Both the position numbers and the translations under genes were made by a program. A DNA stretch of 64,000 bases from assembly GCA_964628885.1 (NCBI GenBank), contig CAZVMP010000002.1, positions 10,330 to 74,329 of the forward strand, read 5' to 3'. Each line of letters opens with the position of its first letter. Position 1 is the stretch's first letter. The notes below the pieces were generated by a model. It ran no database searches. It was not told where the DNA came from and saw only the letters and a program-made list of their open reading frames with translations. The DNA is from an uncultured Gammaproteobacteria bacterium. GTDB taxonomy: Bacteria; Patescibacteriota; Microgenomatia; UBA12405. This document shows, piece after piece, positions 45,506 through 64,000 of the stretch.

Positions 45506-45553
45506 ATTATCATCTTAAAACTATTTTTTTTCATTTGCAATCTTTTTAACTAA

Positions 45554-46318
45554 ATGAGAATATTATTTATGGACGACATCAAAAGTAATAACCCAAACAA
45601 CCAAACTCAGGATGATTATCAAGAAATCCTTGATAAATATGCTGCCTCTATTAAGCCAGAACCTCAAACAGTTCCTTCAGAAACCCCACAACCGACTGTT
45701 AATCCAGAGCCGGAAATTCCACAACCGACTATTCCTGCTGATGCTCTCAAAGAAGTTACTCCATCTCCAGAACCCTCTTTAGAAACCACTCCCTTAACTC
45801 AGCCTACCGATATTATTCCTGAAGCTCCAGCCAGTCAACCAATCACTCCACCAGAACCAGAAACCAAAACTCCCGAAGAAATTAAAGCCGAAATTGACCG
45901 AATTCTTACCGATGAACCTAGTAGTGATAACCAACCAAAAACCACTCCTCTACCATCTTCATCAGGTTCGGGTAAGTTTGTTAAATTTTTATTTACTATT
46001 TCATTAGTTATTTTCTTGGCAGTTGCGGGAGGATTAGCTTATTTTATCTTTATTAACAAGCCGGTTAAAAATAACATCTCCAACGATATTATTCCTACTC
46101 AAGCTCCTAAACCCAGCTGTGTTTTAAATGGAGTTGAGTATAAGCTTGGTGATTCTTTTCCTTCAGCTGATGGCTGTAATACTTGTGTCTGTCAAGCAGA
46201 AGATGCTATTTCTTGCACCCAGAGAGATTGTAGTACTGTTAATACCACTCCTTCAATTTCTCCAGCAACTCAATCTGCTACTCCAACCCAAGAGGCCCTT
46301 CCAACCTTAAGCCAATAG
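45554..46318 (+). CDS. Membrane protein: Pro/Glu/Thr-rich N-terminal region, TM helix, extracytoplasmic 6-Cys domain with a VWC-like spacing
   Basis: PEP/PQPT repeats, TM helix FVKFLFTISLVIFLAVAGGLAYFIFI, then C-VLNGVEYKLGDSFPSADGC-NTC-VC-QAEDAISC-TQRDC. Confidence 0.4.
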   Translation: MRILFMDDIKSNNPNNQTQDDYQEILDKYAASIKPEPQTVPSETPQPTVNPEPEIPQPTIPADALKEVTPSPEPSLETTPLTQPTDIIPEAPASQPITPPEPETKTPEEIKAEIDRILTDEPSSDNQPKTTPLPSSSGSGKFVKFLFTISLVIFLAVAGGLAYFIFINKPVKNNISNDIIPTQAPKPSCVLNGVEYKLGDSFPSADGCNTCVCQAEDAISCTQRDCSTVNTTPSISPATQSATPTQEALPTLSQ

Positions 46319-46460
46319 TTTCTAAACTGTTTTGCTTATTGCTAATCATTGATACTAGGGGTAAAATACCTACATTCTAGCGAGCGGTTGGTACATAACT
46401 CGCATCTCCGTCCAAGCTTAGTGTTGTTGACGGAATCTTTTTTAGTAGTTAAATTTATTG

Positions 46461-49400: not shown

Positions 49401-49832
49401 GTTACTCAGCAACCTCTTGGTGGTAAAGCTCGTATGGGAGGTCAAAGATTAGGAGAAATGGAAGTTTGGGCTCTAGAAGCCCATCAAGCTGCTCATACTT
49501 TACAGGAAATGTTAACCATTAAATCTGATGATATTGATGGTAGAACTCATGCTTTCCAATCAATTATTAAAGGCGAACCAATTCCTGAGCCAGCTATTCC
49601 GGAATCATTTAAAGTTCTTACTAAAGAACTTTCTGGTTTAGCCCTGGACATCTCGCCGGTTGGGGTCAAGGAAATTGACCTTCTTCCTGAAGATGACACT
49701 TCTACTGCTGAGATTAAACCAGAAGATATTAGTCTGGAAATTCCAGCAGAAGAAAATTTTGAAGCCGAAACCGGTGACTTAACCGTTTCTGATTCGGCTA
49801 AGTTAGAGACTGAAATAAAGGAGGAACAATAA
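46461..49832 (+). CDS. rpoB: DNA-directed RNA polymerase subunit beta
   Basis: Full-length conserved Rpb2-type domains. ATG 46461 is preferred. The ORF track starts at TTG 46458. TTGACG-17-TAAATT lies at 46427-46455. Confidence 0.95.
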   Translation: MPSVKRTYWGQKYPNIPKLDLIQIQKESWRDFLDRELRETIHAIAPIIDYTGNNWQLDLGELSYDPITITPEIAKKKGLNYTVPIRIKATLTNKRTGNVREEDVFFLNLPTMTDEGTFIINGIERGVINQLVRSPGVYFTGERDAATGKTLYNAELRPNKGSWLEFFVGKKDVIFARIDRKKKFPATILLRAACQMNDKQLVAEFGDFISATIQADVSKSPEEAVLEFYRKLRPGEPVVMENAQKFFEERFFDLRTYELGNVGRYKVNKKFGFKFDDTDKANWVLRKEDLIATVKYLVELQKGNATRLDDIDSLANRRLRRCGEIVSQIAIRPAMARFERMVKERMSLISTKEKPAPSQMINPQPLISTLNTFFRSNQLSAILDQTNPLSELDLLRRVTVVGIGGLTRDRAAFSIRDVHSSQYGRICTVRSPEGPNIGLVTYLALYARVDNYGFILAPFRKLVKVKDGYTISDDYFYLDADDEFDKKITHLGIKFDDKGVTTQKWVPIRYQGEFIEGPINQVEYIDLVPNQIVGASASLIPFVDHDDATRALMGSHMQTQAVPLVSPQAPIVGTGMEDAVATAMNRSVLAHRSGKVTYVDGSRIVVTLDKKAVVEHHDESEISPDGKTETYYLSKFERTSPYGTCYNQKSVVKTGDIVKQGDLLIDGPSTDGGQLSIGKNLLVAYAELDGLNYEDSFLISDRLVKEDVLTNIQIYEYQAQVVETKLGSEELTKDIPNVSENELSKLTDDGIVMIGATVGPNDILVGKVEPRGEKELSAEERLLRAIFGEKAREVKDTSLRVANGEGGVVIKVDVLDKDQGDELDPGVNKIVKVYIAQIRRIQEGDKIAGRHGNKGVIGRVWPSYDMPRTADGTPVDLVMSPISVISRMNLGQILEANLAHAGLYLNKRYAVPVFEKYPESRIAAELESAGLDKSCKVQLYDGRTGEPYDQQTVVGVGYILKLVHMVDDKVHSRSTGPYSLVTQQPLGGKARMGGQRLGEMEVWALEAHQAAHTLQEMLTIKSDDIDGRTHAFQSIIKGEPIPEPAIPESFKVLTKELSGLALDISPVGVKEIDLLPEDDTSTAEIKPEDISLEIPAEENFEAETGDLTVSDSAKLETEIKEEQ

Positions 49833-52800
49833 TGTTTAAATTTAAAAATATGATCGAATTTTCCGGTCTTCAAATTAAATTAGCTTCCCCGGAAGAAATT
49901 CTTGAATGGTCCCACGGTGAAGTCACTAAACCCGAAACTATTAATTATCGAAGTTGGCGTCCTGAAAAAGACGGCTTATTTTGTGAAAAAATTTTTGGAC
50001 CTAGTCGTGATTATGAATGTTATTGTGGTAAGTACAAAAAAATTCGTTTTAAAGGGGTTGTTTGTGATCGCTGCGGGGTTGAAGTCACTGTTTCCAAAGT
50101 TAGACGTGAACGTATGGGACACATCTCCTTGGCTGCTCCAGTAACTCATCTTTGGTATCTCCGCAATACTCCTTCTCCTTTGGGAGTAATTCTTGATGTT
50201 CCTCAAAAAGATTTGGAATCAGTTGTTTATTTTACTAAATACCTAATTACCCATGTTGATGATTCTAAAAGAAAAGAAGCTTTAGATAATTTACAACAAT
50301 ATTCTCATAATCGATTAGAACAAATTGATGCTGATACTAAAAAAACTATTGAGCAAAAAACTACTGAGATGGAAAAAGAAAAATCTGATCTCAAAAAAAA
50401 GATAAAAAATAAAGATCAGCTTAATATTGCTCAAGAAGAAAGAGATGTCCGTCTCAAACAGGAAATTCAAAAAATTGAAAATAAGGCCTTAGCTGAAAAA
50501 AACCGGATTGAGGGCTTAATTAAATATCTTGAGGAAAAAATTCAAACCATTAATGTTCTTTCGACTATTTCTGATGAAGAGAATTTTTACTTATCTCAGT
50601 TTAGAGCTAATATTTTCTTTACTGCCAGGATGGGAGCTGAGAGCTTAGTTGATGTCTTGTCTCAAATTGATTTAGTTGAAACCGTCAAAGATCTTAAAAA
50701 AGAACTTGCCAAAACCAGTTCTAAAATCAAAAAGAAGAAAATCATGTATAAGATTAGAATTCTTAGTGGTATGAGCGACAATAATATTAAGGCATCATCA
50801 ATGATCTTAACAAATGTCCCGGTTATTCCACCAGATTTACGTCCCATGGTCCAATTGACTGGAGGTCGTTTTGCTACCTCAGATTTAAACGATCTTTATC
50901 GCCGGCTTATTAATCGTAATAACCGTCTTAAAAAACTACTCAAACTTGGAGCTCCAGAAATAATTCTTCGTAATGAAAAAAGAATGCTTCAAGAGTCAGT
51001 TGATATTCTAATTGATGCTCAAAAAGCCTCTAAAAACAAACGCAAAAGTCTTAAAAGAATCCCCAGATCATTATCTGATCTTTTACGTGGTAAAAAAGGT
51101 CGTTTCCGACGTAATCTTTTAGGTAAGCGGGTTGATTATTCCGGTCGTTCCGTCATCGTTGTTGGTCCCGAGTTAGCTCTTGATGAAGTTGGTTTGCCAA
51201 AAGAAATTGCTCTAGAAATGTTCCGTCCTTTTGTTCTTAGGGAACTTATGGCTACTGGTATTGCTCCAAATATCAAAAGTGCTAAAAATTTAATTGATCA
51301 TCGAATTACTGAAGTTTATGATATTTTAGAAAAAGTCACTCAAGATAAGTATGTCCTTCTTAACCGAGCTCCAACCCTTCATAAACTTTCCATTCAGGCA
51401 TTTAAGCCAGTCCTTACTGACGGTTTAGCTATTCGTCTTCATCCTTGTGTTTGTAAAGGATTTAACGCTGATTTTGATGGTGATCAAATGGGAGTTCATC
51501 TCCCCTTGTCTCAAGCCTCTCAAAAAGAAGCCAAAGAATTAATGTTGCCGTCAAAGAATTTGCTTAAGCCAGCAGATAGTAGCCCAATTTCTATCCCTAC
51601 CCAAGGGATGGCTGTCGGCTGCTACTACATTACTTCAGTCAGGTCTCAGGATTTAGCCAAAGAAACTGCCAAAGGGTTTAAAGATTTATCCATCTTTACT
51701 AATCGAGCTGAAGCCGAATTAGCTTATCAATCAAATAAGATTGAACTTCGAGAGCTTATTGCCGTTCGAATTAAAGGTGAAATTATTAAAACTACTTTTG
51801 GTCGAATTTGGTTTAACAAAATCCTCCCCAAAGAGTTTAATTTTGTTAATGAAGCTATGGCTGGCTCCAAGGCTCTCAATGACCTGGTTGTTAAATCTCT
51901 AGAAATTGCTGGTCGAGTTAAAACTGTTAAGCTTATTGACTCTCTTAAGGAGATTGGTTTTAAAGGCTTTACCTTATCTGGTATCTCTTTATCTATGAAT
52001 GATTGTGGTTATCTTCCTAAAAAAGATGACATTATTCATAACGCCAATAAACTCGTTGCTGAAATTGAAGATAACTTCAAAATTGGTCTTATTAGTAATG
52101 ATGAAAAGAAACGTCTTAGTCAAAATATTTGGTTAGAAAAGACTGAAGAAATTGCTGAAAAGACTTGGGAAACCTTAGATGTAGATTCTCCAATTAGAAT
52201 TGTTTCTTCTGCTGGAATTAAAAGAGCTTCAAAAGACCAAATTAAACAGCTTTCTGGTATGAGAGGGCTCATGGTTGATCCTACCGGAAAAATTGTTCAA
52301 TTACCCACTAAATCAAACTTTAGAGAAGGATTATCAGTTTTTGAGTATGTTACCGGAGCTCGTGGTACTCGCAAAGGTTTGGCTGATACTGCTCTTAAGA
52401 CAGCAGATGCCGGTTATCTTACTCGTCGTTTAGTTGATGCCGCCCACATCTCTATTATTAGAATTGATGATTGCGGTACTAAAAAATATATTACTGTTGA
52501 CGCCAACGAAAAAGGTCGCGAAAGATATTTTACTCGTCGTATCTTAGGCCGTGTTTTAGCCAATGATATTATTGACCCTAAGACTAAGAAGGTTTTTCTT
52601 AAAAAAGGTGATATCTTGGATAACAATGCTGTTGATCTTATTGAAAGCAAACAGATCACTTCAGTTGATGTTCGTTCACCTATTACTTGTGCTGCTGAAA
52701 CCGGTCTTTGTCGTCAATGTTATGGTTGGGATTTATCAACTAGAAAAATGGTTGATGTCGGGGTTCCTGTTGGAGTTGTTGCCGCTCAGTCTGTTGGTGA

Positions 52801-53563
52801 ACCAGGTACTCAATTAACATTAAGAACTAAACATACCGGTGGAGTTGTCGGGGTTGACGTTACTCAAGGATTGCCTCGGGTTCAAGAATTATTTGAAATT
52901 CGTATTCCTAAGATTCCTTCACCTTTAGCTGAAATTAATGGTAAGGTTAAGATCAAAGAATCTCTTGATGGTTACGAAGTTAAACTTAGCGGTAAAGATG
53001 ATAAAAAAATTAGCAAAACCATTACTTATATTTTGCCTTCAAATGCCAATTTATTAGTCGCTGATGGTGACCTGGTCGGCAAAGGGACTCAATTATCTTC
53101 TGGATCTCTTGATGTTAGAGAAATTATGGACATCAAAGGTCTTGAAGCTGCTCAAAAATATTTAATAAATAATATTCAAGGGGTTTATGAATCTCAAGGG
53201 ATTACTATCCATGATAAACACTTGGAAGTTATTGTTAAAGAAATGAGCGGTAAGATTAAAATTGAAGACCCTGGTGATACTAATTTCCTCTATGGTCAGA
53301 TTGTCTCTTTGGCAGTTTTTAATGCTACCAACGAAAAAGTCAAAGCTAAAGAGGAATACAATAAGCCAGCTACTGGACGACAAATTCTTCTAGGATTAAT
53401 TCAGTCAGCTCTCACCACCGGATCCTGGTTGTCAGCTGCTTCATTCCAACAAACTACCAGTATTTTGACGGAAGCATCTTTAATTGCTGAAGTCGATGAC
53501 TTGATAGGTTTAAAGGAAAATGTTATTATCGGACGTCTTATTCCTGTCAATAAGGATCAATAA
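49832..53563 (+). CDS. rpoC: DNA-directed RNA polymerase subunit beta'
   Basis: NADFDGDQM active site and the Zn-binding CxxC motifs. The ATG overlaps the rpoB TAA (ATAATG). Confidence 0.95.
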
Positions 53564-53567
53564 AAAT

Positions 53568-53993
53568 ATGCCAACAGCAAACCAACTTATCAAAAAAGGC
53601 CGCAAAGTGAGGATTAAAAAACTCAAAACCGGGGCTCTTCGTGATAATTTTAATACCGTTAATAATCGTTTTACTAAAACTATTAATCCGGTTAAAAAAG
53701 GGGTAGTAACTGTCGTTAAAACTATGACCCCTAAAAAACCTCATTCTGCTTTGAGAAAAATTTGTAAAGTCAAATTAAGTAATCGAAACTTGGTTACTGC
53801 TTATATTCCTGGTATTGGCCATAATTTAGCCGAACACAGTATTGTCTCTATTCGTGGAGGTCGGGTCCGAGATTTACCTGGTGTCCGTTATCATGTTATT
53901 AGAGGTAAATTTGACGCTGCTGGTGTTACTGGAAGAATGCAATCTCGCAGTAAATACGGTGCTAAAAAACCTGGGGCCGCTAAAGCTGCCTAA
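53568..53993 (+). CDS. rpsL: 30S ribosomal protein S12
   Basis: [12 protein letters not shown]...PKKPNSALRK-like region ([16 protein letters not shown]) and [13 protein letters not shown] 53568 lies 4 nt after the rpoC stop. Confidence 0.9.
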
Positions 53994-54033
53994 ATTATAA
54001 ACTTTATAACTTTTAACTTTATAAAAAACTATT

Positions 54034-54516
54034 ATGTCCAGAAAAGGAGCTAGTAAAATTAGACAAGTTGAACCAGATGCTATCTATAATAGTGTTTTGG
54101 TCTCCAAAATTATTAATGCTACCATGAAAGATGGTAAGCGGAATGCTGCTGAAAAACAAATTTATCAAGCATTAGAATTAATTAAAAAGGATTTTCCTAA
54201 AGAATCAGAGTTAGAGGTTCTGGAGAGAGCTTTCGAAAATATTAAGCCTAAGATTGAAGTCCGTCCTCGTCGAATTGGAGGTGCTGTTTATCAAATTCCT
54301 ACCCCAGTTCGAGGTCTCCGTCAAAATTCTTTAGCAATTCGTTGGTTAATTAGTTCTTCTCGAGCTAGAAGTAATAAACAATACCATTCGTTTGCTCAAA
54401 AAATTGCCGCTGAACTTAATGATGCCCTTAGTAATAGTGGGGCTGCTGTCGCCAAAAGAGTAGAAATCGAACGGATGGCTGAAGCTAATAAAGCCTTTGC
54501 TCACCTCAGGTGGTAG
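54034..54516 (+). CDS. rpsG: 30S ribosomal protein S7
   Basis: MSRKG...VLVSKIINATMKDGKRNAAEKQIY...RW matches S7. Confidence 0.9.
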   Translation: MSRKGASKIRQVEPDAIYNSVLVSKIINATMKDGKRNAAEKQIYQALELIKKDFPKESELEVLERAFENIKPKIEVRPRRIGGAVYQIPTPVRGLRQNSLAIRWLISSSRARSNKQYHSFAQKIAAELNDALSNSGAAVAKRVEIERMAEANKAFAHLRW

Positions 54517-54600
54517 TTTTACAAACTAAAAACCTATTGTTGGGGATTTTTTTCTTTAGTCTTGATTTCATAGTTAAATTTAGTCATACTTAGATAATAT

Positions 54601-55968
54601 ATGTCGTTATTTTCCAAGCCCAAGATTGTTATTTGGCCCAAAAGTCAGTCGGTTGAAATTTATCTTAGCCGTAAGGACAATAATTTTTTCAGTTTAGATA
54701 TTAATCTTTGGCAAGAAAGATCAGGAAAGGATTTGGAGGGGTTAATTTTTTTCCTAAATCAAAACAAAATTACTCAAGCTTCAGTTTTAATTCCTGATGA
54801 TGTTGTTGTTACTAAATCATTTGTTTATGATACTAAAATTGACACCATTGATAAAAAAGAGGTTATTAGTCTAGCTTCCGGTTTTGTTAATTTTAATATT
54901 AATCCAGAATCTATTGAATATTCTCTAATTCAAGATGGAGATAAAACTATCATTAACTCCGTTATTTATGATAAATCGAAAATTGATTGTCTTAAATCTA
55001 ATCTCCTTAAAACTAATTTAAACATCACTTCCTATCAACCAGTTTCAGCCGCAGTTAGCAACGTTGTTTCTAGAATTTATCTTAATGAATTTTTTCTTAT
55101 CTATCCCTTAAATGATCGTGAATATACTTTATTGCTCTCAAAAAATAATCAAGTTTATTTGACCGCTAATTTTAAAGGTCCAGGACTTGATATTCAAAAA
55201 ACCATTAATTATGCTCAACTGTATTTTTCTAATCCAGTTACCAAAATCTATTATCCGGAGAATAAAGACTTAGAAATTATTACTTCTACAGAAATGGAAA
55301 AAACTTCCTATAATGAAACTCAAATTGCTCAAAGCTTAAACCAACCTGGGAATATGCCGTTACCAGTTGTTGGTCAGAATAATGGTATAATTAACTCAAA
55401 TAAAGATATTAGTTTAACTAAACAATCAAATATGAATAATAAAAAGAATTTAATCCCTATAATTGCCGTTATTATCTTTTCTTTTGCGATTGTTTCCTTT
55501 ATTGTTTATCTTATAATCAACAAAAATCAATCTTCTGAAATAATTGATGGTAATCAACTTGACCAAGATGTCATTCCTACCACCATTATTGAAGCTATTA
55601 CTCCCGAACCCACTCCAATCGTTGAAGAAATTAGTAAGGATATAAAAATCCAGGTCCTAAATGCTACTGAAATTAACGGTCAGGCTGCTACTCTTAAGGC
55701 TAAATTAGTTTCTTTAGGATTTGAAAACGTTGCCGTCGGCAATGCTGCCACTGCTGCCACTACTAATTCTGTTCAGGTTAAATCAGCCACTACTTCAGCT
55801 TATTTTGAGTCAGTTTTAATGGAAGATTTCCCCGCCGACTATACCGACGATCTTAAATCAACCTCTACTTATGATGCTGTTTTCACTATTGGTACCGACA
55901 TTTCTGGGATGAAAACTATTACTGTTACTCCCACCACAACTACCACTCCTACCGTTGTTGAAGAATAA
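54601..55968 (+). CDS. Bitopic membrane protein: PilM-like N-terminal cytoplasmic domain, TM helix, C-terminal LytR_C (LytR/CpsA/Psr C-terminal) domain
   Basis: The N-terminus KIVIWPKSQSVEIYL...ASVLIPDDVVVTKSF...IEYSLIQDGDKTIINSVIYDKSKIDCLKSNLLKTNLNI follows the PilM/FtsA-like pattern. The TM helix is LIPIIAVIIFSFAIVSFIVYLII. The C-terminus IKIQVLNATEINGQAATLKAKLVSLGFENVAVGNAA...YDAVFTIGTD matches the LytR_C consensus. A candidate promoter (TTGATT...TAGATAAT) lies at 54561-54597. Confidence 0.45.
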   Translation: MSLFSKPKIVIWPKSQSVEIYLSRKDNNFFSLDINLWQERSGKDLEGLIFFLNQNKITQASVLIPDDVVVTKSFVYDTKIDTIDKKEVISLASGFVNFNINPESIEYSLIQDGDKTIINSVIYDKSKIDCLKSNLLKTNLNITSYQPVSAAVSNVVSRIYLNEFFLIYPLNDREYTLLLSKNNQVYLTANFKGPGLDIQKTINYAQLYFSNPVTKIYYPENKDLEIITSTEMEKTSYNETQIAQSLNQPGNMPLPVVGQNNGIINSNKDISLTKQSNMNNKKNLIPIIAVIIFSFAIVSFIVYLIINKNQSSEIIDGNQLDQDVIPTTIIEAITPEPTPIVEEISKDIKIQVLNATEINGQAATLKAKLVSLGFENVAVGNAATAATTNSVQVKSATTSAYFESVLMEDFPADYTDDLKSTSTYDAVFTIGTDISGMKTITVTPTTTTTPTVVEE

Positions 55969-55975
55969 TTAATTT

Positions 55976-57250
55976 ATGGTTGAGTCGTCACGGTATCAAC
56001 AGGATCAGCTAGCTATTTCAAACAAGGAGAAAATAGATTCTCTTCGAGAATTTACTGTTTCTCCTGATGGTCAAGAGACCATGATTAATTTTGTTGAATC
56101 TCTCAGATCAGAAGTTGGTAATCGGTCTGGTTGGGAAGCTGTTTGCCGTCAGGCTGAAGCCGAAATATCACTTTACCCGGTTACCGATGAGGTTTTAAAC
56201 AAGTTAAATCAATCTTTTTCTGTTTTTATTGATCGAATGCCTCCTGGTCACGACCGTGGTCATTTATCCCGCGATTTATTAGCCTCACTTTATCTCTACG
56301 GCTCTACTAGGAACAACATCTCTTATAAATCAGATGCAACTGCTGGTTTACTGGCCGGTATTTACCATGATATTGGCACGGCTATTATTCCTAGATATCA
56401 GGACAACAAGTACGGCGCCGGTCATGCTGAAACTGGTTCTTATCTTTTTTGGCAGATTTCAGAGGGGCTTATTGATGAAAATACCCGAAAATTAGCTTGT
56501 TATGCTATTGCCGCTCATACTCATTATTTAAATGATATTAAGACTTCTTTTCCTAAAGATTATCTCAGAAAAACTTACTGGGATGATCTCCATCAGGATG
56601 ATGACGGCAAGCTTATCGGTACCGCCATCCATCTAACTCGTTGCAGTGATAGGGCTGATAGTAATGGGGTTAATCTTATTTTTCGTCACATCAACGCTAA
56701 TATAGACACTCTTCAACAAGGTGGTCAAGAAATTCATGATGATCAGTGGATTGATATTAACCGCGACAGTTTAATTAAGGTCTTAACTCCTATTATTAGG
56801 GAAGATCAAACCAAACCATTAACCACCTTAGAGCACGTTCTCCGTTTTGCTAAGTCAAATGACGGTACCACTCCTTATTCTAAGAATGATCATTTTTTTC
56901 CCGAATTTAAAAAAATACTTAGATTAGAGCTGGCTCAATTTAGAGATTTTATGACTAGTCTTAACGACCACTCTTCATCTATTAACGGTAACAACCTCTC
57001 TTCTCAGGAGACAATAAAATCTTTTTTGTATAAATTTTCCAAATCAGATCCTCATGATTTTGATCAAGCTTGGTTAAGTTTCACCAAAATTTGGCCTCAA
57101 ATCAACAAAGACCACCAGCTTCGTTGGTATCGTGGCACGGCTTATGCCAAATCAGCTTATAATGACTTACTTGATTTTTATCAGCAGGAACTCAAATCAT
57201 CCGATTTTCCACTAACTGTTGACCGCACTATTGATTTTCTCCGCCACTAG
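55976..57250 (+). CDS. Hypothetical HD-domain-like protein
   Basis: PPGHDRGHLSRD, GIYHDIGTA, AGHAETG, AIAAHTHYLND and RCSDRADSNG show a His/Asp metal-ligand pattern consistent with an HD phosphohydrolase fold. The call is weak. Confidence 0.35.
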   Translation: MVESSRYQQDQLAISNKEKIDSLREFTVSPDGQETMINFVESLRSEVGNRSGWEAVCRQAEAEISLYPVTDEVLNKLNQSFSVFIDRMPPGHDRGHLSRDLLASLYLYGSTRNNISYKSDATAGLLAGIYHDIGTAIIPRYQDNKYGAGHAETGSYLFWQISEGLIDENTRKLACYAIAAHTHYLNDIKTSFPKDYLRKTYWDDLHQDDDGKLIGTAIHLTRCSDRADSNGVNLIFRHINANIDTLQQGGQEIHDDQWIDINRDSLIKVLTPIIREDQTKPLTTLEHVLRFAKSNDGTTPYSKNDHFFPEFKKILRLELAQFRDFMTSLNDHSSSINGNNLSSQETIKSFLYKFSKSDPHDFDQAWLSFTKIWPQINKDHQLRWYRGTAYAKSAYNDLLDFYQQELKSSDFPLTVDRTIDFLRH

Positions 57251-57286
57251 AAACTGTCTTGAAAAATCGCTTCCAAATACGATACA

Positions 57287-58306
57287 ATGGTGTCACATAT
57301 GAAAATACTAATTACTGGCGGTCTTGGTTTTATTGGTTCGAATTTCATTAAGTATTGGTTTAAACAACATCCCAATGATTCCATCATTAATTTTGATAAG
57401 GTTACTTATGCTGCCAACCCTCGTAATTTAGTTGAATTTAATAATCATCCCAATTATCGTTTTGTTAAAGGTGATATTTTAGATGAGGCTTTGGTTAATG
57501 ACCTAGTTTCTCAGGTTGATCTAATTGTTCATTTTGCTGCCGAGTCACACGTTGATCGCTCTATTGATGACCCATCATTATTTGTTCGCACTAACGTCTT
57601 GGGTACTTACAATCTTTTAATGGCTGCTCGTCAACATAATACCCGTTTTCACCATGTTTCCACTGATGAGGTTTTTGGCAGTATTGATATTGACTCTTCT
57701 AATCAATTTAATGAAACTACTCCTTACGATCCCTCCAGCCCTTATTCAGCTTCTAAGGCTTCATCAGATCATTTTGTCAGATCTTTTCATAAAACTTTTG
57801 GTTTACCGGTTACTATTAGTAACTGTTCCAATAATTATGGTCCTTATCAGCATCCTGAAAAAATGATTCCTCGGACAGTTACCAACCTTTTGTCTGGTCA
57901 AAAAGTCAAAATTTATGGTCAAGGTCTTAATTTCCGTGATTGGCTTCATGTTGAAGACCATTGTCGGGCTTTAGAATTAATTATTCTAAAAGGTAGAATT
58001 GGTCAAACTTACTGTATTGGTGGTCTTAAGAAAGGTACTTCCAATATTGATTTGGTTAAACAAATCTTAAAATTAATGAATAAGGATGAATCCGATATTG
58101 AATATGTTGCTGACCGCCCAGCTCACGACAATTATGCTGTCAATTGGGATAAGATTAGTCAAGAATTGGGTTGGCAACCTCAATATGATTTAGAGTCAGG
58201 TCTCAAACAAACCATCAACTGGTATACTCAAAACGAATCCTGGTGGCAGGAAACCAAAAAAGAAGCTGAAGAGTTTTATCTCAAATTAAATCAATCAAAA
58301 AAATAA
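57287..58306 (+). CDS. rfbB: dTDP-glucose 4,6-dehydratase
   Basis: MKILITGGLGFIGSNF Rossmann motif, the YSASKAS catalytic YxxxK, and DEVFG. Confidence 0.85.
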   Translation: MVSHMKILITGGLGFIGSNFIKYWFKQHPNDSIINFDKVTYAANPRNLVEFNNHPNYRFVKGDILDEALVNDLVSQVDLIVHFAAESHVDRSIDDPSLFVRTNVLGTYNLLMAARQHNTRFHHVSTDEVFGSIDIDSSNQFNETTPYDPSSPYSASKASSDHFVRSFHKTFGLPVTISNCSNNYGPYQHPEKMIPRTVTNLLSGQKVKIYGQGLNFRDWLHVEDHCRALELIILKGRIGQTYCIGGLKKGTSNIDLVKQILKLMNKDESDIEYVADRPAHDNYAVNWDKISQELGWQPQYDLESGLKQTINWYTQNESWWQETKKEAEEFYLKLNQSKK

Positions 58307-58854
58307 TGCCGAATTTTGTCAACACCAATATTGACGGCCTAATCATTATTGAACCCTCAGTTTTCAAAGATGATAGGGGATTTTTTTTGGAAAGCTATAA
58401 TCAAAAAGTTTTTGCTGATAACGGCATTGATGTTAATTTTGTTCAGGACAATCACTCCAGCTCAACACAAGGAGTACTTCGTGGACTTCATTTTCAAAAA
58501 CCACCCTTTTCTCAGGATAAACTTATCCGCTGTTCTCGTGGTGAGGTTTTTGATGTTGCCGTTGACCTTCGACCTAACTCTGTCACTTTTGGTCAGTGGG
58601 AAAGCCTTATTTTATCCGAAGATAACCAAAAAATGTTTTTTATTCCCCAAGGCTTTGCTCATGGGTTTTTAGTTTTATCAGACATTGCTGATTTTCAGTA
58701 TAAATGTAGTAATTTTTATCACAAGGAATCGGAGTCCGGTCTTATCTGGAATGATCCTGATTTAAATATTAATTGGCCTCAAGTTAATAACTTAATTTTG
58801 TCTGACAAAGACAAGCTCTGGCCTAGTTTGAAAGATTTTAAGGAGACTTTATGA
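58306..58854 (+). CDS. rfbC: dTDP-4-dehydrorhamnose 3,5-epimerase
   Basis: EPSVFKDDRGFF, RGLHFQ and FIPQGFAHGF cupin motifs. The ATG overlaps the rfbB stop. Confidence 0.85.
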   Translation: MPNFVNTNIDGLIIIEPSVFKDDRGFFLESYNQKVFADNGIDVNFVQDNHSSSTQGVLRGLHFQKPPFSQDKLIRCSRGEVFDVAVDLRPNSVTFGQWESLILSEDNQKMFFIPQGFAHGFLVLSDIADFQYKCSNFYHKESESGLIWNDPDLNINWPQVNNLILSDKDKLWPSLKDFKETL

Positions 58855-59741
58855 CCACTATCATTGGCACCGGTCTAACCGGTCTAGTTGGTAGTCGGAT
58901 TGTTGAGTTACTGAAAGATAATTATAATTTTGTTGATTTTTCCCTTGATTCGCAAGTTAATATTCTTGATCAAGGTAGTCTTTCTCAAGCTTTTGGAGCC
59001 AATAGTAGTGCTACTACCATTATCCATTTAGCTGCTTTCACTGATACCGCTGCTGCTTGGGAACAAAGAGGCGATAAATCTGGCCTTTGCTATCAACTTA
59101 ATGTTACTGGAACTAAAAATATCCTTGATTTAGCCCAAAAACATCGTCTTAAATTAATTTATATTTCCACCGATTTTGTTTTTAGTGGCAGTAAAACTAC
59201 TCCTTATTTTGAAACTGATATGCCTGATCCTATTGAATGGTATGGTGAAACTAAATATTTAGGTGAAAAATTAATTCAAGATTCAAGTTACCCTAACTAT
59301 GCTATTGCTAGGATTACCTACCCTTATCGGGCTAATTTTGATAAAAAACCAGACATTATTCATAAAGTCTTAACCAAACTTCAAAATGGGGAGACAGTTA
59401 AGATGTTTTCTGATCAGATTTGTACTTACACTTTTATTGATAATATTGCTTATGGAATAGACAAGCTCATTAAAAGTGACTCTCGTGGTATTTATCATTT
59501 AGTAGGATCTTCTTCTCATTCTCCTTATCATATGGCCCAACTAGTTGCCAAAACCTTTGGTTATAACGAAAAATTAGTTCAAGCTTCAAGCTTAAAAGAT
59601 TATCTTAAATCACAGCCGGCCGGTTCTCGTCCTTGGCAAGAAACCTTAATTACTTCTAATCAAAAAGCCGTTAATTTAGGGATAAGTTTTAAGACCTTAA
59701 TTGAAGGTTTAGAAGAAATTAAAGTTCAGAAATCACTTTAG
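58851..59741 (+). CDS. rfbD: dTDP-4-dehydrorhamnose reductase
   Basis: RmlD-like short Rossmann (IIGTGLTGLVGSRI), YISTDFVF, and the YGETKYLGE catalytic YxxxK. 4-nt overlap with rfbC. Confidence 0.7.
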   Translation: MTTIIGTGLTGLVGSRIVELLKDNYNFVDFSLDSQVNILDQGSLSQAFGANSSATTIIHLAAFTDTAAAWEQRGDKSGLCYQLNVTGTKNILDLAQKHRLKLIYISTDFVFSGSKTTPYFETDMPDPIEWYGETKYLGEKLIQDSSYPNYAIARITYPYRANFDKKPDIIHKVLTKLQNGETVKMFSDQICTYTFIDNIAYGIDKLIKSDSRGIYHLVGSSSHSPYHMAQLVAKTFGYNEKLVQASSLKDYLKSQPAGSRPWQETLITSNQKAVNLGISFKTLIEGLEEIKVQKSL

Positions 59742-60936
59742 CCATTTTTCTTGCTTCCTTGATGGCAAAATTTAAACCTCTGTCTTCAGGGTAGATTTGG
59801 GCAAAATTCATTTGGTAAATTTTATTAGACAGTTTGACCTTAGGAATTTTACTTTTGTAATCAGTAGTTACTATTTGCTGAGCCTCTTTAAATCTAAACA
59901 CCGACACCTTATTAACCATTTTGCTATCAAATTTAGGAAATATTTTATTAAGGTATTTAAACCAATCATCAGTTATTTTTTTATCGCTCCATTTAAAAAA
60001 TTTATGATTTCTAGGCAGATAAGCTCCTAGATAGTAAATTTCCTTATTTCCGTAATTTTTTTTATCAATTAAATTAGTCTGTTGTACCACCGCTACAAAA
60101 GGGGAATTAGTGTCATTAATGTTATGCCAGTAATAAGGGCTTAAGTTTTGTTTGCTTTCAAAAACTACCCCAATTACCCCTAAATATTCTACTTTTTTTG
60201 ATGGCCTAGTATCCACGATAATCTCATAATTCTTTTCCAATTCTGTTAACTTTTCTAAGTTGGTGTTTAGTTTAATTTCCCCTCCGTTTTCTTTGATTAA
60301 TTTAGCCAGTTTTTCTACTATTAGTTCAAAGCCTCCGTTAATATAACCTAAAACCTCTTCACCTTTTTTGTTAGTTGAGTTGCCCCTAGTATGAATTCTG
60401 GCCCACAACCAAGCCATGGAAATATCTTTGTAATAATTATGAAACTTACCTTTTAGTAATGGTTTCCAAACCACCTCATAAGCCTTTTTTCCCACCGCCT
60501 TCTTCATCCATTGATCAGCTGTAATTTTTTCATATTTTTCCCAATTTTTATCAAACTTTAGCCATAGTGCCACCATTCCCATTCTTAATTTACTTACCAA
60601 GCTTAAGGGTTTAAATTTTAATAAATCTATTGCTGTTACAAATGGATATATTTCTCCGTCCCAATATAATCCTAGTAAGCTTTTATACCAACCAATATTT
60701 TCTTTTAAACCAATTTCTTTCACTAGTTTTATAAAATCGGTATCAGTTTTAAAAAAATGGTGATATAGCTGTTCTAGTTTATTTTCTCCTATTTTAAATC
60801 CAGCCAACAAGCCTCCCAGTTGTTTCTCTTTTTCTAATATAGTTATCTTATTACCCTTTTTTGATAAAAAATATCCCAATGTCAATCCGCCAATACCACC
60901 TCCGACAATTACAATATTTTTCCCTTTTCTATTCAT
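59719..60936 (-). CDS. FAD/NAD(P)-binding oxidoreductase (amine-oxidase / PPOX / CrtI-like fold)
   Basis: The N-terminal dinucleotide-binding motif reads NIVIVGGGIGGLTLGYFLSKKGNKITILEKEKQLGG. The C-terminal FAD-contact region is GLNFAIKEARKMAK. It is convergent with rfbD, overlapping by 23 nt. Confidence 0.55.
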   Translation of the reverse strand: MNRKGKNIVIVGGGIGGLTLGYFLSKKGNKITILEKEKQLGGLLAGFKIGENKLEQLYHHFFKTDTDFIKLVKEIGLKENIGWYKSLLGLYWDGEIYPFVTAIDLLKFKPLSLVSKLRMGMVALWLKFDKNWEKYEKITADQWMKKAVGKKAYEVVWKPLLKGKFHNYYKDISMAWLWARIHTRGNSTNKKGEEVLGYINGGFELIVEKLAKLIKENGGEIKLNTNLEKLTELEKNYEIIVDTRPSKKVEYLGVIGVVFESKQNLSPYYWHNINDTNSPFVAVVQQTNLIDKKNYGNKEIYYLGAYLPRNHKFFKWSDKKITDDWFKYLNKIFPKFDSKMVNKVSVFRFKEAQQIVTTDYKSKIPKVKLSNKIYQMNFAQIYPEDRGLNFAIKEARKMAKVISEL

Positions 60937-61024
60937 TTACTCTTATGGTATCATAGAAACAGTCGCTGTTACCGTGACTTTGATGGTAGCAGTTTTTATT
61001 ATTTATCTAGATTTAAAACTATTT

Positions 61025-63136
61025 ATGGCCGAACAAATTAAATTAACCAAAAACCGTGACGTGCCTATGGAGAAAGTCCGTAATATTGGTATTATTGCTC
61101 ACATTGATGGCGGTAAAACCACTACTACCGAGCGTCTCTTATTTTATACTGGCAATATTCACAAAATTGGTTCAGTTGATGACGGTACCACTACCACTGA
61201 TTCCATGGTTCAAGAAAGAGAGAGAGGAATTACTATTCAGTCTGCTTGTGTTACTACTTTTTGGAAAGATTTTCGTCTCAACGTTATTGACACTCCTGGT
61301 CACGTTGATTTTACCGCTGAAGTCGAACGGTCACTTCGTGTTCTCGATGGGGCAATCATGATTTTTGATGGTAATGCTGGAGTTCAGGCTCAATCTGAAA
61401 CTGTTTGGCGCCAAGCTGATAAATATCACGTTCCTCGAATTGCTTTCGTTAATAAAATGGATAAAATTGGTGCTTCTTTTGAAAATACTCTTAAAAGTAT
61501 TCAAGACAAACTCCGTGCTCCTATTGTTCCTGTGGTTATTCCTATTGGTCAAGAACACGACTTTACTGGTGTTATTGATCTCATGACTCAAAAAATGATT
61601 GTTTATGACAAAGATGAACAAGGAATGGAATTTACCACTAAAGATGTTACCGATGATTATCGGGAAGCAGTTACTCTTGCCAGAGCTAAGATGGTAGAGC
61701 AAATTGCCGGTGAAGATGAGTCTCTTATGGAAAAATTTCTCAATGACCAAGAAATTTCTGTCCCAGAATTAAAAGCTGCTCTTAGAAAAGCCACTATTGA
61801 TCGCCGTCTTTTTCCAGTTTATTGTGGTGCTGCCTGGCGCAATAAAGGTATTCATCCTATTCTTGATGGGATTGTTGATTATTTACCCTCTCCTTTAGAT
61901 CTTCCTCCGATTGAGGGTTTTAATCCAGAAAATAACGAAGTTATTCTTCGTCGCCCACTTAAAACTGATCCTCTCTCAGCCTTACTTTTTAAAGTTCAAG
62001 CCGATCCTCACATAGGAACCTTATCCTATGTTAGAGTTTATTCTGGAAATCTTAAGGCTGGATCCGAAGTTTACAACACCACTAAGGGTAAAAGTGAGCG
62101 GATTGGGCGTCTTCTTTTAATGCATGCTGATAAGCGAGAAGGAATTGAGGAGGGTTTTGCTGGTGAGATTGTTGCCTGTATTGGTCTTAAAGAATCAACT
62201 ACTGGCGATACTTTATGCGACGGTAATAATGTTATTTCTTTGTCACCAATTCAGTTTTCTGAACCAGTTATCTCTCTTTCTGTTGAGCCTTTAACTACCG
62301 ATGATCAGGAAAAAATGGGTTCGGCTCTTAATCGCCTTGCCATCGAAGATCCGACCTTTAAAGTTAGTTATAATCACGAAACTGGTCAAACTATCATTGG
62401 GGGTATGGGAGAGCTTTATTTAGAAATAGTTGTTGATCGTCTTAAGCGCGAATTCGGAGTTGGGGTTAAAACCGGTTCTCCACAAGTAGCTTATCGAGAA
62501 ACTATTTCCAACAACGCAGAAGGTGAAGGTAAATATATTCATCAATCTGGTGGTCATGGTCAATATGGTCACTGTAAAATTAAAGTTGAACCAAAAAACC
62601 GTGGCGAAGGCTATGAATTTGTTAACGCTGTTAAGGGTGGAGCTATTCCTGCTAATTTTATTCCCGCTATTGAAAAGGGAGTTAAAGAAACTCTCCAAAA
62701 AGGGATTATTGCTGGTTATCCTTGCACCGATATCAAGGTTACTGTTTATGATGGCACTTATCACGAAGTTGACTCTTCTGAGATGGCTTTTAAACTAGCT
62801 GGATCCTATGCTATTAAAGATGCCTTCCAGGCTGCCAATCCTTTAGTCTTGGAACCGATTATGAAGTTTGAGGTTAACACTCCATCAGAATTTTTAGGTT
62901 CAGTTATTGGAGATTTATCTTCACGACGTGGTCAAATTAATAGTACTTCTGAATCTGGAAACTTTACTACTATTGAAGCTTCAGTTCCTTTAGAGGCAGT
63001 TCGTGGTTATGCTACTGTTATTAGAAGTTTAACCCAGGGTAGGGGATCATTTTATATGGAGCCTAGTCACTATGATCCAGTTCCTCGTGATATCCAGGAA
63101 CAGTTGACTAGCAAAATAAATCTTGGATCAAAGTAA
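61025..63136 (+). CDS. fusA: Elongation factor G
   Basis: MAEQIKLTKNRDVPMEKVRNIGIIAHIDGGKTTTTERLL with the full five-domain EF-G. The 17-codon upstream extension in the ORF track was rejected. Confidence 0.95.
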   Translation: MAEQIKLTKNRDVPMEKVRNIGIIAHIDGGKTTTTERLLFYTGNIHKIGSVDDGTTTTDSMVQERERGITIQSACVTTFWKDFRLNVIDTPGHVDFTAEVERSLRVLDGAIMIFDGNAGVQAQSETVWRQADKYHVPRIAFVNKMDKIGASFENTLKSIQDKLRAPIVPVVIPIGQEHDFTGVIDLMTQKMIVYDKDEQGMEFTTKDVTDDYREAVTLARAKMVEQIAGEDESLMEKFLNDQEISVPELKAALRKATIDRRLFPVYCGAAWRNKGIHPILDGIVDYLPSPLDLPPIEGFNPENNEVILRRPLKTDPLSALLFKVQADPHIGTLSYVRVYSGNLKAGSEVYNTTKGKSERIGRLLLMHADKREGIEEGFAGEIVACIGLKESTTGDTLCDGNNVISLSPIQFSEPVISLSVEPLTTDDQEKMGSALNRLAIEDPTFKVSYNHETGQTIIGGMGELYLEIVVDRLKREFGVGVKTGSPQVAYRETISNNAEGEGKYIHQSGGHGQYGHCKIKVEPKNRGEGYEFVNAVKGGAIPANFIPAIEKGVKETLQKGIIAGYPCTDIKVTVYDGTYHEVDSSEMAFKLAGSYAIKDAFQAANPLVLEPIMKFEVNTPSEFLGSVIGDLSSRRGQINSTSESGNFTTIEASVPLEAVRGYATVIRSLTQGRGSFYMEPSHYDPVPRDIQEQLTSKINLGSK

Positions 63137-63257: not shown

Positions 63258-64000
63258 ATGGCAGATACTTTTCAAAGAAATAAGCCACACGTTAACGTTG
63301 GTACTATTGGTCACGTCGATCATGGTAAAACAACCTTAACTGCCGCTATTTCCAAAATTCAAGGAAGTGCCAAAACATACGCCGATATCGCTAAGGGTGG
63401 TACTGTTCGTGATGCTTCCAAGATTGTTACTATTGCTATCTCTCATATCGAGTACGAAACCGACAAGAGACATTACGCCCACATTGATTGCCCTGGTCAC
63501 GCTGATTATGTTAAGAACATGATTACTGGTGCCGCTCAAATGGATGGTGCTATTTTAGTCGTCTCTGCACCAGATGGCCCCATGCCTCAAACCCGGGAAC
63601 ACGTCTTGTTAGCCAAACAGGTTAATGTCCCTAAATTAGTGGTCTACTTAAATAAGGTTGACTTAGTCGAAGATCCAGAATTTTTGGATTTAGTTGAGAT
63701 GGAAATTCGTGATTTACTTACTAAATACGGTTATCCTGGTGACGAAGTTCCAATTATTCGTGGTTCTGCTCTCAAGGCTCTTAATGGTGACACTGATGGA
63801 GTTGAATCTATCAAAAAATTGATGGAAGCTCTTGATACCTATATTCCTGAGCCCGTTCGTGAACTAGACAAACCATTTTTAATGGAAATTGAGGATGTCT
63901 TTTCCATTAAAGGTCGTGGTACAGTTGCTACTGGAAGAATTAACCGTGGTATTGTCAAGATTAATGACGAAGTTGAAATTGTTGGTCTTCGTGATACTCG
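63258..64000 (+). CDS. tuf: Elongation factor Tu (5' portion; continues beyond the window end)
   Basis: AGGAG lies 6 nt upstream of ATG 63258. [31 protein letters not shown]...[26 protein letters not shown]. The open frame runs to the window edge. Confidence 0.95.

Follow-up and report, generated by a model that had tools for sequence, protein, structure and literature searches.

The str operon in this genome is split, with six non-translation genes between rpsG and fusA, which lie 6.5 kb apart. We consider it likely that this is an ancient break of a deep CPR clade, inherited vertically, with two fixed genes at its edges and with the parts of the region organised as separate transcription units. 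The clade, as sampled, consists of Candidatus Shapirobacteria and near relatives, within Microgenomates, and the split str operon would be a gene-order signature of the clade as a whole. Throughout, the window is the whole 64-kb stretch of DNA that was analysed.

Gene order from rpoB to tuf

Open reading frames and family profiles agree on the order below. A preliminary description of this DNA had reported the split, with rpsL-rpsG on one side and fusA-tuf on the other, and had named rfbB-rfbC-rfbD, an HD-like protein, a convergent FAD oxidoreductase (FADox), fusA and tuf; all of these identities hold.

46458-49832, plus strand: rpoB, with Pfam RNA_pol_Rpb2 domains
49832-53563, plus strand: rpoC, 72-93% identical to relatives
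53568-53993, plus strand: rpsL (S12), PF00164 at 107 bits
54034-54516, plus strand: rpsG (S7), PF00177 at 165 bits; last translation gene before the break
54601-55968, plus strand: LytR_C protein, 455 aa, PF13399 at 33.6 bits (cut-off 22.2)
55976-57250, plus strand: HD-like protein, 424 aa, PF01966 at 18.6 bits, under the cut-off of 22
57287-58306, plus strand: rfbB, TIGR01181 at 466 bits (cut-off 365)
58306-58854, plus strand: rfbC, TIGR01221 at 259 bits (cut-off 156)
58851-59741, plus strand: rfbD-like gene, PF04321 at 158 bits and TIGR01214 at 148 bits, the latter under the cut-off of 224
59719-60936, minus strand: FADox, NF005560/PRK07233 at 419 bits (cut-off 252)
61025-63136, plus strand: fusA (EF-G), 703 aa from the ATG at 61025, with the Pfam EF-G domain set
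63258-64000, plus strand: tuf (EF-Tu), truncated by the window end, 83-98% identical to relatives

The rpoB-rpoC pair lies directly 5' of rpsL, and its upstream neighbours recur in all relatives. The gap of 4 nt between the rpoC stop and rpsL, read from the sequence, and the absence of rplKAJL genes upstream of rpoB both match the earlier account; the gene for an unknown Cys-rich protein lies there, together with a small ORF and, on the minus strand, a MiaB-like radical-SAM gene. Beyond the break, fusA is 74-95% identical to its relatives in alignments that start at residue 1; a longer GTG ORF from 60974 is an ORF-finder artefact and overlaps the hairpin described below. The tuf gene starts at 63258, not 63259, behind a clear AAGGAG Shine-Dalgarno sequence, and in relatives the S10 operon follows directly 3' (tuf-rpsJ-rplC-rplD in loci L085, L094 and L096).

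Since the source is metagenome-type sequence, an assembly chimera at one or both junctions was a legitimate concern, but we give it practically no credence. Logan contig ERR4682910_14583 (9276 bp), from an independent assembly of run ERR4682910, is 100% identical to positions 53516-62791 and covers both junctions, which excludes the possible misassembly that the preliminary description had flagged there; dozens of independent assemblies (JGI, ENA, NCBI) share the identical gene order. The arrangement is rare. Every one of 74 sampled loci from diverse bacteria whose sequence runs on for 1.5 kb or more beyond rpsG has the EF-G start no farther than 600 bp from that gene, and a survey of 305 genomes found fusA outside str in only two single-EFG genomes (PMC3150367).

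Conservation of the break and its two flanking genes

Relatives were sampled in two ways. Anchoring on S7, a choice that does not favour loci with the insert, yielded 11 relatives (65-89% S7 identity), all with a LytR_C homologue directly after rpsG and, where the sequence extends far enough, with fusA 3.9-8.1 kb or more than 10 kb downstream. The second sample comprised 80 LytR_C-anchored metagenome loci, with rpsG directly upstream in 61 of 62, the single exception being accounted for. Every one of the 28 loci that span rpsG to fusA (spacing 2.8-11 kb) has the LytR_C gene and a minus-strand FADox as its flanking pair. All relatives keep the break and both flanking genes, even those with S7 identity as low as 59% and LytR_C identity as low as 41%, and on a neighbour-joining tree of S12, S7 and EF-G, rooted with 10 very distant outgroups, the pair is present in the deepest branches. 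The split thus occurs throughout the sampled lineage and so dates back to the ancestor of a deep CPR clade, although 'Shapirobacteria-specific' could be too narrow a term, since the sample included no sister lineage with contiguous rpsG-fusA.

This synteny speaks against the preliminary description's view of the genes as inserted. Recent entry, at strain or species level, of an island of envelope and sugar genes, gained by horizontal transfer, into a previously unbroken str operon would be in keeping with the lower G+C over the LytR_C and FADox genes (0.29-0.33 versus 0.36-0.40 in the flanks, only a mild drop) and with the varying content of the slot between them. It is nevertheless very improbable, given that every relative sampled has the break, flanked by this pair of genes, that the break carries no integrase, tRNA gene, significant flanking repeats or Rfam matches as signs of a mobile element, and that the LytR_C protein family is confined to this clade, so that no outside donor is visible.

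The invariant core consists of two genes, those for the LytR_C protein and FADox, and not of the rfb block, so that the emphasis previously placed on sugar genes is not upheld. The slot between the two holds rfbB/C/D, rfbA (in some deep branches), an HD-like gene, NUDIX or nothing. In the crown clade to which the window belongs it contains rfbB-rfbC-rfbD, joined here by the HD-like gene; elsewhere it contains rfbA with rfbB, rfbB alone, NUDIX with small unknown genes, or is empty. All crown-clade relatives have rfb genes, but 5 of the 28 spanning loci have none, so these genes are dispensable. The HD-like gene is an accessory occupant, found in only 4 of the 28 and on either strand; its product has H92-D93, H96, H131-D132, H150, H181 and D225 invariant in nine homologues, and a search for a PDB relative found none.

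On the tree, rfb content varies patchily among deep branches, and the crown clade has BCD without A throughout; as the tree was built quickly by neighbour joining and its outgroups are very distant, it leaves the order of gains and losses uncertain. The window has three of the four dTDP-L-rhamnose genes (57287-59741). As had been described, rfbA (NTP_transferase) is missing: none was found in the 64-kb window by Pfam scans of all large ORFs or by tblastn with relatives' RmlA-like proteins. Within the clade, five deep-branching relatives, and only these, carry an RmlA-like gene inside the cluster.

The LytR_C protein appears to be a clade-specific bitopic membrane protein. It has an actin-like GspL/PilM-like domain (residues approx. 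5-260), a transmembrane helix (285-308), a Pro/Thr linker and a LytR_C domain (346-432), and the predicted topology places the actin-like domain in the cytoplasm and the LytR_C domain outside it, with the linker disordered. The N-terminal domain of the AlphaFold2 model (pLDDT approx. 88) matched PilM, EpsL/GspL and FtsA in Foldseek, including PilM 5eq6 (E 2.6e-12) and the EpsL/GspL cytoplasmic domains 1yf5 and 4pht, with target-normalised TM-scores of 0.56-0.60. The label 'PilM-like' given to the protein earlier is thus apt at the level of fold but not of sequence family, as Pfam gave no PilM or GspL match; DxG phosphate-binding motifs cannot be seen in its sequence. The Cei model NF035953 matches weakly (E 4.7e-6, 26.5 bits), over the transmembrane helix and LytR_C domain only. 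The family is very narrow, a set of 1.84 billion proteins containing just 36 of its clusters (50% identity), and its distant members retain the same architecture. FADox is a PRK07233-type FAD-dependent oxidoreductase of the amine-oxidase/phytoene-desaturase superfamily (NF005560), its nearest PDB entry being 3nrn, an uncharacterised protein; the gene converges on rfbD, the two overlapping by 23 bp at their 3' ends, and is divergently oriented relative to fusA. The module may serve an envelope glycopolymer, as its LytR_C domain and rfb genes hint.

Candidate transcription signals at the two junctions

Conserved sequence signals at both junctions suggest separate transcription units. In the window they are the following.

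54562-54590, plus strand: candidate LytR_C promoter, with TTGATT at 54562-54567, a 17-nt spacer and CATACT at 54585-54590
60945-60955, both strands: palindromic extended -10 ATGGTATCATA, the only match in the window
60965-60998, plus strand: terminator-like hairpin (60965-60993) and T-run, from the terminator scan

Generic sigma-70 and terminator scans showed no enrichment over shuffles in this AT-rich region. With 10 nt between the end of CATACT and the LytR_C ATG, the predicted leader is approximately 4 nt long. An extended -10 (TGnTAnnnT) ends 5-7 nt before this ATG in 40 of 67 unique relatives, versus 1 of 61 rpsL-rpsG gaps taken as a control, and most of the remaining relatives have CATACT 8-11 nt upstream; of the promoter proposed previously at about 54561-54597, it is thus the -10 half that is conserved across the clade. 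A -10 only 5-7 nt from the start codon would imply a leaderless mRNA; in the window, a Shine-Dalgarno sequence is missing from most genes, and a -10 adjoins the ATG of many. Terminators stand after rpsG in L085, L091 and the group of L117, L123, L126, L127, L130, L131 and L137. The rpsG-LytR_C gap is 9-29 nt in 30 of 70 loci, where read-through from rpsG is likely because there is no room for a terminator.

Read on the plus strand, ATGGTATCATA gives TG-G-TATCAT and is a candidate fusA promoter; its minus-strand reading, TG-A-TACCAT, stops 8 nt short of the FADox ATG. Of 35 loci examined, 33 have the motif TGnTA[TC][CAG]AT 5' of fusA, and the palindrome stays beside fusA where another gene separates FADox from it (L092, L140, L173 and L177). 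The hairpin begins approximately 4 nt downstream of where fusA transcription is predicted to start and has a free energy of -15 kcal/mol (z = -3.1). Hairpin and T-run recur in 25 of 33 unique fusA leaders (shuffle mean 1.1, maximum 4) and are absent from the other 8; the stem sequences are unrelated between clades, and 4 of 5 consensus pairs show compensatory changes. The hairpin is therefore a candidate leader attenuator or 5' stabiliser of the fusA transcript.

A possible, though not a probable, alternative is that hairpin and T-run form a plain terminator of plus-strand read-through, with fusA transcribed from a downstream TATTAT and the palindrome serving FADox only. A conserved TTTTTATTAT after the hairpin does contain this -10-like TATTAT, and read-through into the fusA leader is plausible because the rfbD and FADox 3' ends overlap without a terminator between them. 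However, the other conserved promoters here have a TG extension and this TATTAT has none, and in the four loci where a plus-strand gene, not FADox, lies beside fusA the palindrome is still found directly upstream of the hairpin; a minus-strand promoter would have no adjacent gene there, which counts against a palindrome for FADox only. The read-through stopped by such a terminator would be antisense to FADox or come from an upstream gene.

In E. coli, EF-G expression is coupled to S7. Here, a single rpsL-tuf transcript and translational coupling of rpsG to fusA are impossible, because an opposite-strand gene sits between them. We propose instead four units, judging their promoter activity, leaderless translation and hairpin role by conserved motifs and spacing. 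The first would be rpoB-rpoC-rpsL-rpsG, ending at a clean intrinsic terminator in some relatives and probably read through in others. A dedicated promoter, its -10 situated 5-10 nt before the LytR_C ATG, would yield a leaderless or near-leaderless LytR_C-(HD)-rfbBCD mRNA as the second, and FADox on the opposite strand would be the third. The fourth, fusA-tuf-S10 operon, would start from the palindromic extended -10, with a transcript opening on the hairpin and U-tract, which probably attenuate or stabilise it.

The location of the two fixed genes could itself be under selection, LytR_C being co-expressed with rpoBC-rpsLG and FADox sharing the fusA control region. The break would then be no frozen accident but an operon fusion of adaptive value, tying envelope construction to how much the transcription and translation machinery produces. 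Both genes are invariant at their exact positions while everything between them turns over, the short rpsG-LytR_C gaps favour read-through, and the palindromic -10 is common to FADox and fusA. We nonetheless regard this as unlikely, since in several relatives a strong terminator separates rpsG from the LytR_C promoter, a conserved candidate promoter of its own precedes the LytR_C gene, and extra genes are tolerated at both the rpsG/LytR_C junction (L103, L104, L159, L165, L173 and L178) and the FADox/fusA junction (the four loci noted above).

Comparison with known systems

Ribosomal-protein operons can carry promoter-proximal attenuators, an example being the terminator that L4 controls in the S10 leader of E. 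coli. The predicted fusA-leader element, without a match among Rfam families, is similar in placing a hairpin and U-tract in the 5' leader of a long translation unit that reaches S10 in relatives, but is far shorter (approx. 35 nt) and lies at the extreme 5' end of the predicted transcript.

The LytR_C protein shares its predicted actin-like N-terminal fold with GspL/EpsL of type II secretion and with PilM or PilM-PilN of the type IV pilus, although no secretion or pilus genes were found in the window. Its overall plan is GspL-like (cytoplasmic actin-like domain, one transmembrane helix, outer domain), with LytR_C as the outer domain in place of the ferredoxin-like domain of GspL/PilN. A transmembrane helix followed by LytR_C is also seen in envelope proteins such as mycobacterial Cei (NF035953) and at the C-terminus of some LCP proteins; the protein described here is, however, far under the 150-bit Cei cut-off, adds a 260-residue cytoplasmic actin-fold domain and lacks the LCP catalytic domain. 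Compared with rmlABCD (rfbABCD) dTDP-L-rhamnose clusters, rfbB and rfbC are above their equivalog cut-offs and an rfbD-like gene is adjacent, overlapping rfbC, but rfbD is under its equivalog cut-off and rfbA is missing from cluster and window alike.

The four str genes have the order and orientation of the canonical rpsL-rpsG-fusA-tufA operon of E. coli and B. subtilis, with rpoBC immediately upstream, as in many Gram-positive bacteria, and the S10 operon after tuf in relatives; the difference lies in the separation of rpsG from fusA, which includes an opposite-strand gene here and in relatives. The portion of Brandis et al. 2019 considered here (PMC6735719) describes multigene insertions between the operons of the rpoBC-str-S10-spc-alpha supercluster. 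As in those cases, unrelated genes have broken into an ancient supercluster in certain lineages, and the interrupted form has been passed on; unlike the insertions highlighted in that portion, the break reported here falls inside the str operon, is found clade-wide and has an invariant, clade-specific gene at either end.

The rpsG-fusA break and its distribution

The adjacency of rpsG and fusA is among the most conserved gene orders in bacteria. In the window, rpsL, rpsG, fusA and tuf are all present in the order and on the strand expected of a str operon, and rpsG lies 6.5 kb from fusA, with six genes in between, of which one is on the other strand. ORF and family searches confirmed the gene layout put forward in the preliminary description:

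Genes of the rpoB-tuf region (window positions)
46458-49832, plus strand, rpoB
49832-53563, plus strand, rpoC; rpsL begins 4 nt later
53568-53993, plus strand, rpsL
54034-54516, plus strand, rpsG; six non-translation genes follow
54601-55968, plus strand, LytR_C-domain protein, 455 aa (PF13399)
55976-57250, plus strand, weak HD-domain protein, 424 aa (PF01966, below cut-off)
57287-58306, plus strand, rfbB (TIGR01181)
58306-58854, plus strand, rfbC (TIGR01221)
58851-59741, plus strand, rfbD-like gene (PF04321)
59719-60936, minus strand, PRK07233-type FAD oxidoreductase, FADox (NF005560)
from ATG 61025, plus strand, fusA
from 63258, plus strand, tuf; EF-Tu is 83-98% identical to that of relatives

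A GTG start for fusA at 60974, present in a mechanical ORF list, was rejected as an artefact of an ORF that runs through a hairpin in the fusA leader; alignment to relatives places the true start at ATG 61025. Rfam and ARAGORN identified no RNA genes in the window. The rplKAJL block is absent upstream of rpoB, as had been claimed, with nothing similar found there. Its expected place (43945-46318, and the same positions in the related loci L085-L095) is occupied by three neighbours kept across the clade: a MiaB-like radical-SAM gene and a small Big_13/Ca-tandemer-like ORF, both on the minus strand, and a plus-strand gene for a Cys-rich VWC/Pacifastin-like protein. Elsewhere in the window, a 730-aa ORF without a Pfam match lies directly upstream of a sortase gene with a 4-nt overlap (39498-42403), and the two may encode a surface protein and its sortase.

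The preliminary description had raised the possibility of chimeric joins at the two ends of the break. An independent assembly reproduces both junctions: the 9276-bp Logan contig ERR4682910 matches window positions 53516-62791, which include both, at 100% identity. To set the arrangement against other bacteria, we assembled a control set of 80 diverse loci, all non-CPR, from an S7 search of genome contigs in which the universal motifs IGGAVYQI and MAEANKAF dominated the matches. EF-G starts within 600 bp of rpsG in all 74 control loci with at least 1.5 kb of sequence downstream of rpsG. Among 305 genomes in a published survey, only two with a single EFG have fusA located outside str (PMC3150367). 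The searchable literature yielded no description of an rpsG-fusA split in CPR or Shapirobacteria.

The closest S7 proteins are labelled 'Candidatus Shapirobacteria', a CPR/Microgenomates lineage. We examined the genomic context of 11 graded relatives sampled by S7, from 89% down to 65% identity; a second search, made with the S7 protein of a peripheral relative (P0115), brought in a peripheral clade and retrieved only further split-bearing lineages. A LytR_C homologue lies directly after rpsG in 11/11, and wherever there is enough sequence fusA follows after 3.9-8.1 kb or at a distance above 10 kb. The upstream neighbours of rpoB are also common to all 11. Scanning metagenomes with aligned LytR_C proteins added 80 loci at 41-82% identity. 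Among those with enough upstream sequence, rpoC-rpsL-rpsG directly precedes the LytR_C gene in 61 of 62; the sole exception, L142, is a member of a sub-lineage in which rpsG and the LytR_C gene are parted by a gene for a small membrane protein. In all 28 loci that span rpsG to fusA, the LytR_C gene bounds the break towards rpsG and a minus-strand FADox bounds it towards fusA, and rpsG and fusA are 2.8-11 kb apart. In a rough neighbour-joining tree of S12, S7 and EF-G with 10 outgroups, this pair is already found in the deepest branches.

The break had first been read as an insertion, possibly lineage-specific, a reading to be given up if the arrangement proved ubiquitous in the lineage. It is ubiquitous among the relatives sampled (11/11 by S7 and 28/28 spanning loci), and hence ancestral. 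Nor does the stretch qualify as a genomic island or mobile element: the locus contains no tRNA gene, only chance-level repeats and no integrase-type Pfam domains, and there is no patchiness, the break being present in all relatives sampled. G+C content shows only a mild dip over the break.

Several relatives carry extra genes at other junctions. The small predicted membrane protein encoded after rpsG and ahead of the LytR_C gene (197-276 aa long; N-terminus MENINN...) occurs in one sub-lineage (L103 9210-9953, L104 9353-9946, L159 2213-2986 and L142 236-1066), so insertions are tolerated at that junction too. The fusA-tuf junction, a gap of 121 nt in the window, is a second site of extra genes (L088 9450-10091; L095 17776-18549), with gaps of 1.2-3.4 kb in relatives, L115, L123, L161 and L169 among the loci with such gaps; the str block is therefore further fragmented in some lineages. 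In L095, rpoC is called as two ORFs of 298 and 942 aa (5709-9426), with separate tblastn alignments to query residues 1-281 and 304-1243, which could reflect a frameshift, an assembly error or a genuine split.

Genes bounding and filling the break

The LytR_C protein family is conserved and extremely narrow. Identity among the best 120 matches is 57-83%, and an exhaustive HMMER pass with the N-terminal 280 residues through 1.84 billion representatives returned 36 clusters, nearly all of whose members are 436-525 aa long. Members down to 28% identity retain the C-terminal LytR_C domain, which in the window protein scores 33.6 bits with PF13399 (gathering score 22.2). An AlphaFold2 model (mean pLDDT 76.5, N-domain approx. 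88) predicts the following architecture:

Predicted architecture of the LytR_C protein (AlphaFold2 model)
residues approx. 5-260, cytoplasmic alpha/beta domain
residues 285-308, TM helix
between the TM helix and the LytR_C domain, disordered Pro/Thr linker
residues 346-432, LytR_C domain

Foldseek comparison of the modelled N-domain with the PDB yielded PilM (5eq6, E 2.6e-12), EpsL/GspL and FtsA with probability 1.0, and the TM-scores against the EpsL/GspL cytoplasmic domains 1yf5 and 4pht, normalised to the target, are 0.56-0.60. The cytoplasmic domain as modelled is an actin-like (ASKHA) fold. The earlier label 'PilM-like' is therefore apt at the level of the fold and fails as a sequence-family assignment, since the Pfam PilM and GspL models gave no match to residues 1-280 even at E up to 10. 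No canonical DxG phosphate loops are visible in the protein, and neither the window nor the genes listed for related loci include any pilus or secretion ATPase or platform gene. The LytR_C domain is present without an LCP catalytic domain, and NCBIfam gave only weak Cei-like and RodZ-like matches, confined to the TM helix and the LytR_C domain. In overall architecture the protein comes closest to GspL.

At the other boundary, FADox passes NF005560 (PRK07233; 419 bits, cut-off 252), a family annotated as 'hypothetical protein', and among solved structures it comes nearest to PF1083 (3nrn), an uncharacterised protein.

Between these two genes lies a variable slot, whose content differs among the 28 spanning loci:

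Slot content in the 28 spanning loci
20 loci, rfbBCD; four of these also carry the HD-like gene
1 locus, rfbB and rfbD only
2 loci, rfbB only
5 loci, no rfb gene

A NUDIX gene and several small unknown ORFs recur between the LytR_C gene and rfbB. On the tree, rfb content is patchy in the deep branches, and uniformly rfbBCD without rfbA in the crown clade, to which the window belongs. RmlB (466.5 bits with TIGR01181, cut-off 365.1) and RmlC (259.3 bits with TIGR01221, cut-off 155.75) both exceed the equivalog cut-offs. The rfbD-like product falls below the cut-off of TIGR01214 (148.5 bits, cut-off 224), scores 158 bits with PF04321 (RmlD_sub_bind, cut-off 27) and has a visible YxxxK motif and N-terminal Gly-rich motif. 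The reported lack of rfbA in the cluster extends to the whole 64 kb window: no large ORF matches PF00483, and tblastn with five RmlA-like proteins from relatives found no glucose-1-phosphate thymidylyltransferase (RmlA). Those five come from deep-branching loci, where an RmlA-like NTP_transferase gene (PF00483, 217 bits; N-terminus MKGIILAGGRATRL...SKQLLPVYDKPMIYYP) lies beside rfbB within the slot:

RmlA-like genes of deep-branching loci
L141 4100-4816
L144 11750-12469
L146 6408-7121
L167 10789-11517
L168 11347-12054

The proteins are of a short form (235-242 aa) with GGRATRL in place of GGSGTRL, and tblastn found no homologue in crown-clade loci. The crown clade, the window included, has probably lost the RmlA-like gene from the cluster.

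The HD-like protein scores 18.6 bits with PF01966 (cut-off 22), and H92-D93, H96, H131-D132, H150, H181 and D225 are invariant in nine homologues. Neither its sequence nor a nine-sequence profile found a PDB relative. PADLOC and NCBIfam gave weak Cas3-HD matches only, none convincing as a defence system, and the accessory slot genes likewise had no defence-system matches.

Putative transcription signals at the two junctions

At the rpsG/LytR_C junction, 40 of 67 unique sequences have an extended -10 element (TGnTAnnnT) whose end lies 5-7 nt ahead of the LytR_C ATG; in the rpsL-rpsG gap, used as a control, the count is 1 of 61. In most of the other LytR_C upstream sequences, that of the window among them, CATACT stands 8-11 nt upstream of the ATG. 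Of the promoter proposed earlier at about 54561-54597, it is this -10 part that is kept in relatives:

Candidate LytR_C promoter in the window
54562-54567, plus strand, TTGATT
17-nt spacer
54585-54590, plus strand, CATACT

Across the window, a Shine-Dalgarno-like motif precedes only about 11 of 49 genes, and a TAnAAT-type -10 element lies 5-10 nt upstream of many start codons (e.g. 33019, 37642, 17733, 10283 and, on the minus strand, 13490). The -10 spacing, the lack of a Shine-Dalgarno motif and the many other genes whose -10 abuts the ATG indicate leaderless or near-leaderless mRNAs, and suggest that these are common in this genome. In several relatives a clean intrinsic terminator separates rpsG from the LytR_C promoter; in others the gap is merely 9-28 nt, so that read-through from rpsG is likely. 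A generic promoter and terminator scan gave no enrichment over shuffles, and these predicted signals are credible solely through their comparative conservation.

Upstream of fusA, the palindrome ATGGTATCATA at 60945-60955, the single such site in the window, reads on the plus strand as an extended -10 for fusA and on the minus strand as one whose end lies 8 nt upstream of the FADox ATG. The element is kept upstream of fusA, and stays with fusA even where another gene parts it from FADox. About 10 nt downstream is a hairpin with a T-run (60965-60998; -15 kcal/mol, z = -3.1), which recurs in 25 of the 33 unique leaders; shuffles gave 1.1 on average. Its stems are unrelated in sequence between clades, with compensatory changes at four of five consensus pairs, and it has the make-up of an intrinsic terminator, a G+C-rich hairpin and U-tract, at a conserved position. 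No Rfam family matched it. The same leader was also seen in L085, L087, L088, L091, L092 and L101-L177. We regard the hairpin as a candidate promoter-proximal attenuator or 5'-terminal stabiliser of a predicted fusA-tuf-S10 unit. Alternatively, its terminator-like form may serve only to stop upstream read-through, the real fusA promoter being the TATTAT just after it; on that reading ATGGTATCATA would serve FADox only.

Implications and comparison with known systems

The boldest reading starts from the candidate attenuator. S7-coupled control of fusA would have been lost, and the fusA-tuf-S10 unit would have come under a previously undescribed promoter-proximal hairpin/U-tract attenuator, acted on possibly by a ribosomal protein, EF-G or nucleotide levels. 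The LytR_C scaffold and FADox would owe their retention to a coupling of their expression to that of the transcription and translation machinery, and envelope growth would be linked to ribosome output in ultra-small cells. That the break created such a new regulatory design for core translation genes, with the invariant flanking genes wired to it, we consider improbable.

Given how conserved rpsG-fusA adjacency is in bacteria, a break inherited clade-wide is useful in three ways. It provides a clean genomic signature (synapomorphy) of a deep CPR lineage, an aid in classifying and binning fragmentary MAGs; it indicates that S7/EF-G co-transcription and coupling are dispensable in this clade; and it singles out for experimental attention a conserved leader element and the two invariant genes, both still uncharacterised. 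To our knowledge, almost nothing is known about gene regulation in these organisms, and the approximately 70 aligned examples suggest widespread use of leaderless, extended -10 promoters in this CPR lineage. The break overturns no principle, and the functions discussed are those we infer.

Compared with known systems, the locus is not a contiguous str unit, as rpsG is not directly followed by fusA. A single rpsL-to-tuf transcript from a promoter upstream of rpsL is probably absent, judging from the convergent FADox, the conserved promoters and the leader hairpin, all of which argue against one polycistronic message; the locus acts like a dismembered str operon. In the rpoBC-str-S10-spc-alpha supercluster, the insertions described in a published account sit between operons (PMC6735719), whereas here the break lies inside an operon, is clade-wide and has an invariant gene at either end, at least one of the two being clade-specific. 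It is a gene-order rearrangement of a conserved operon.
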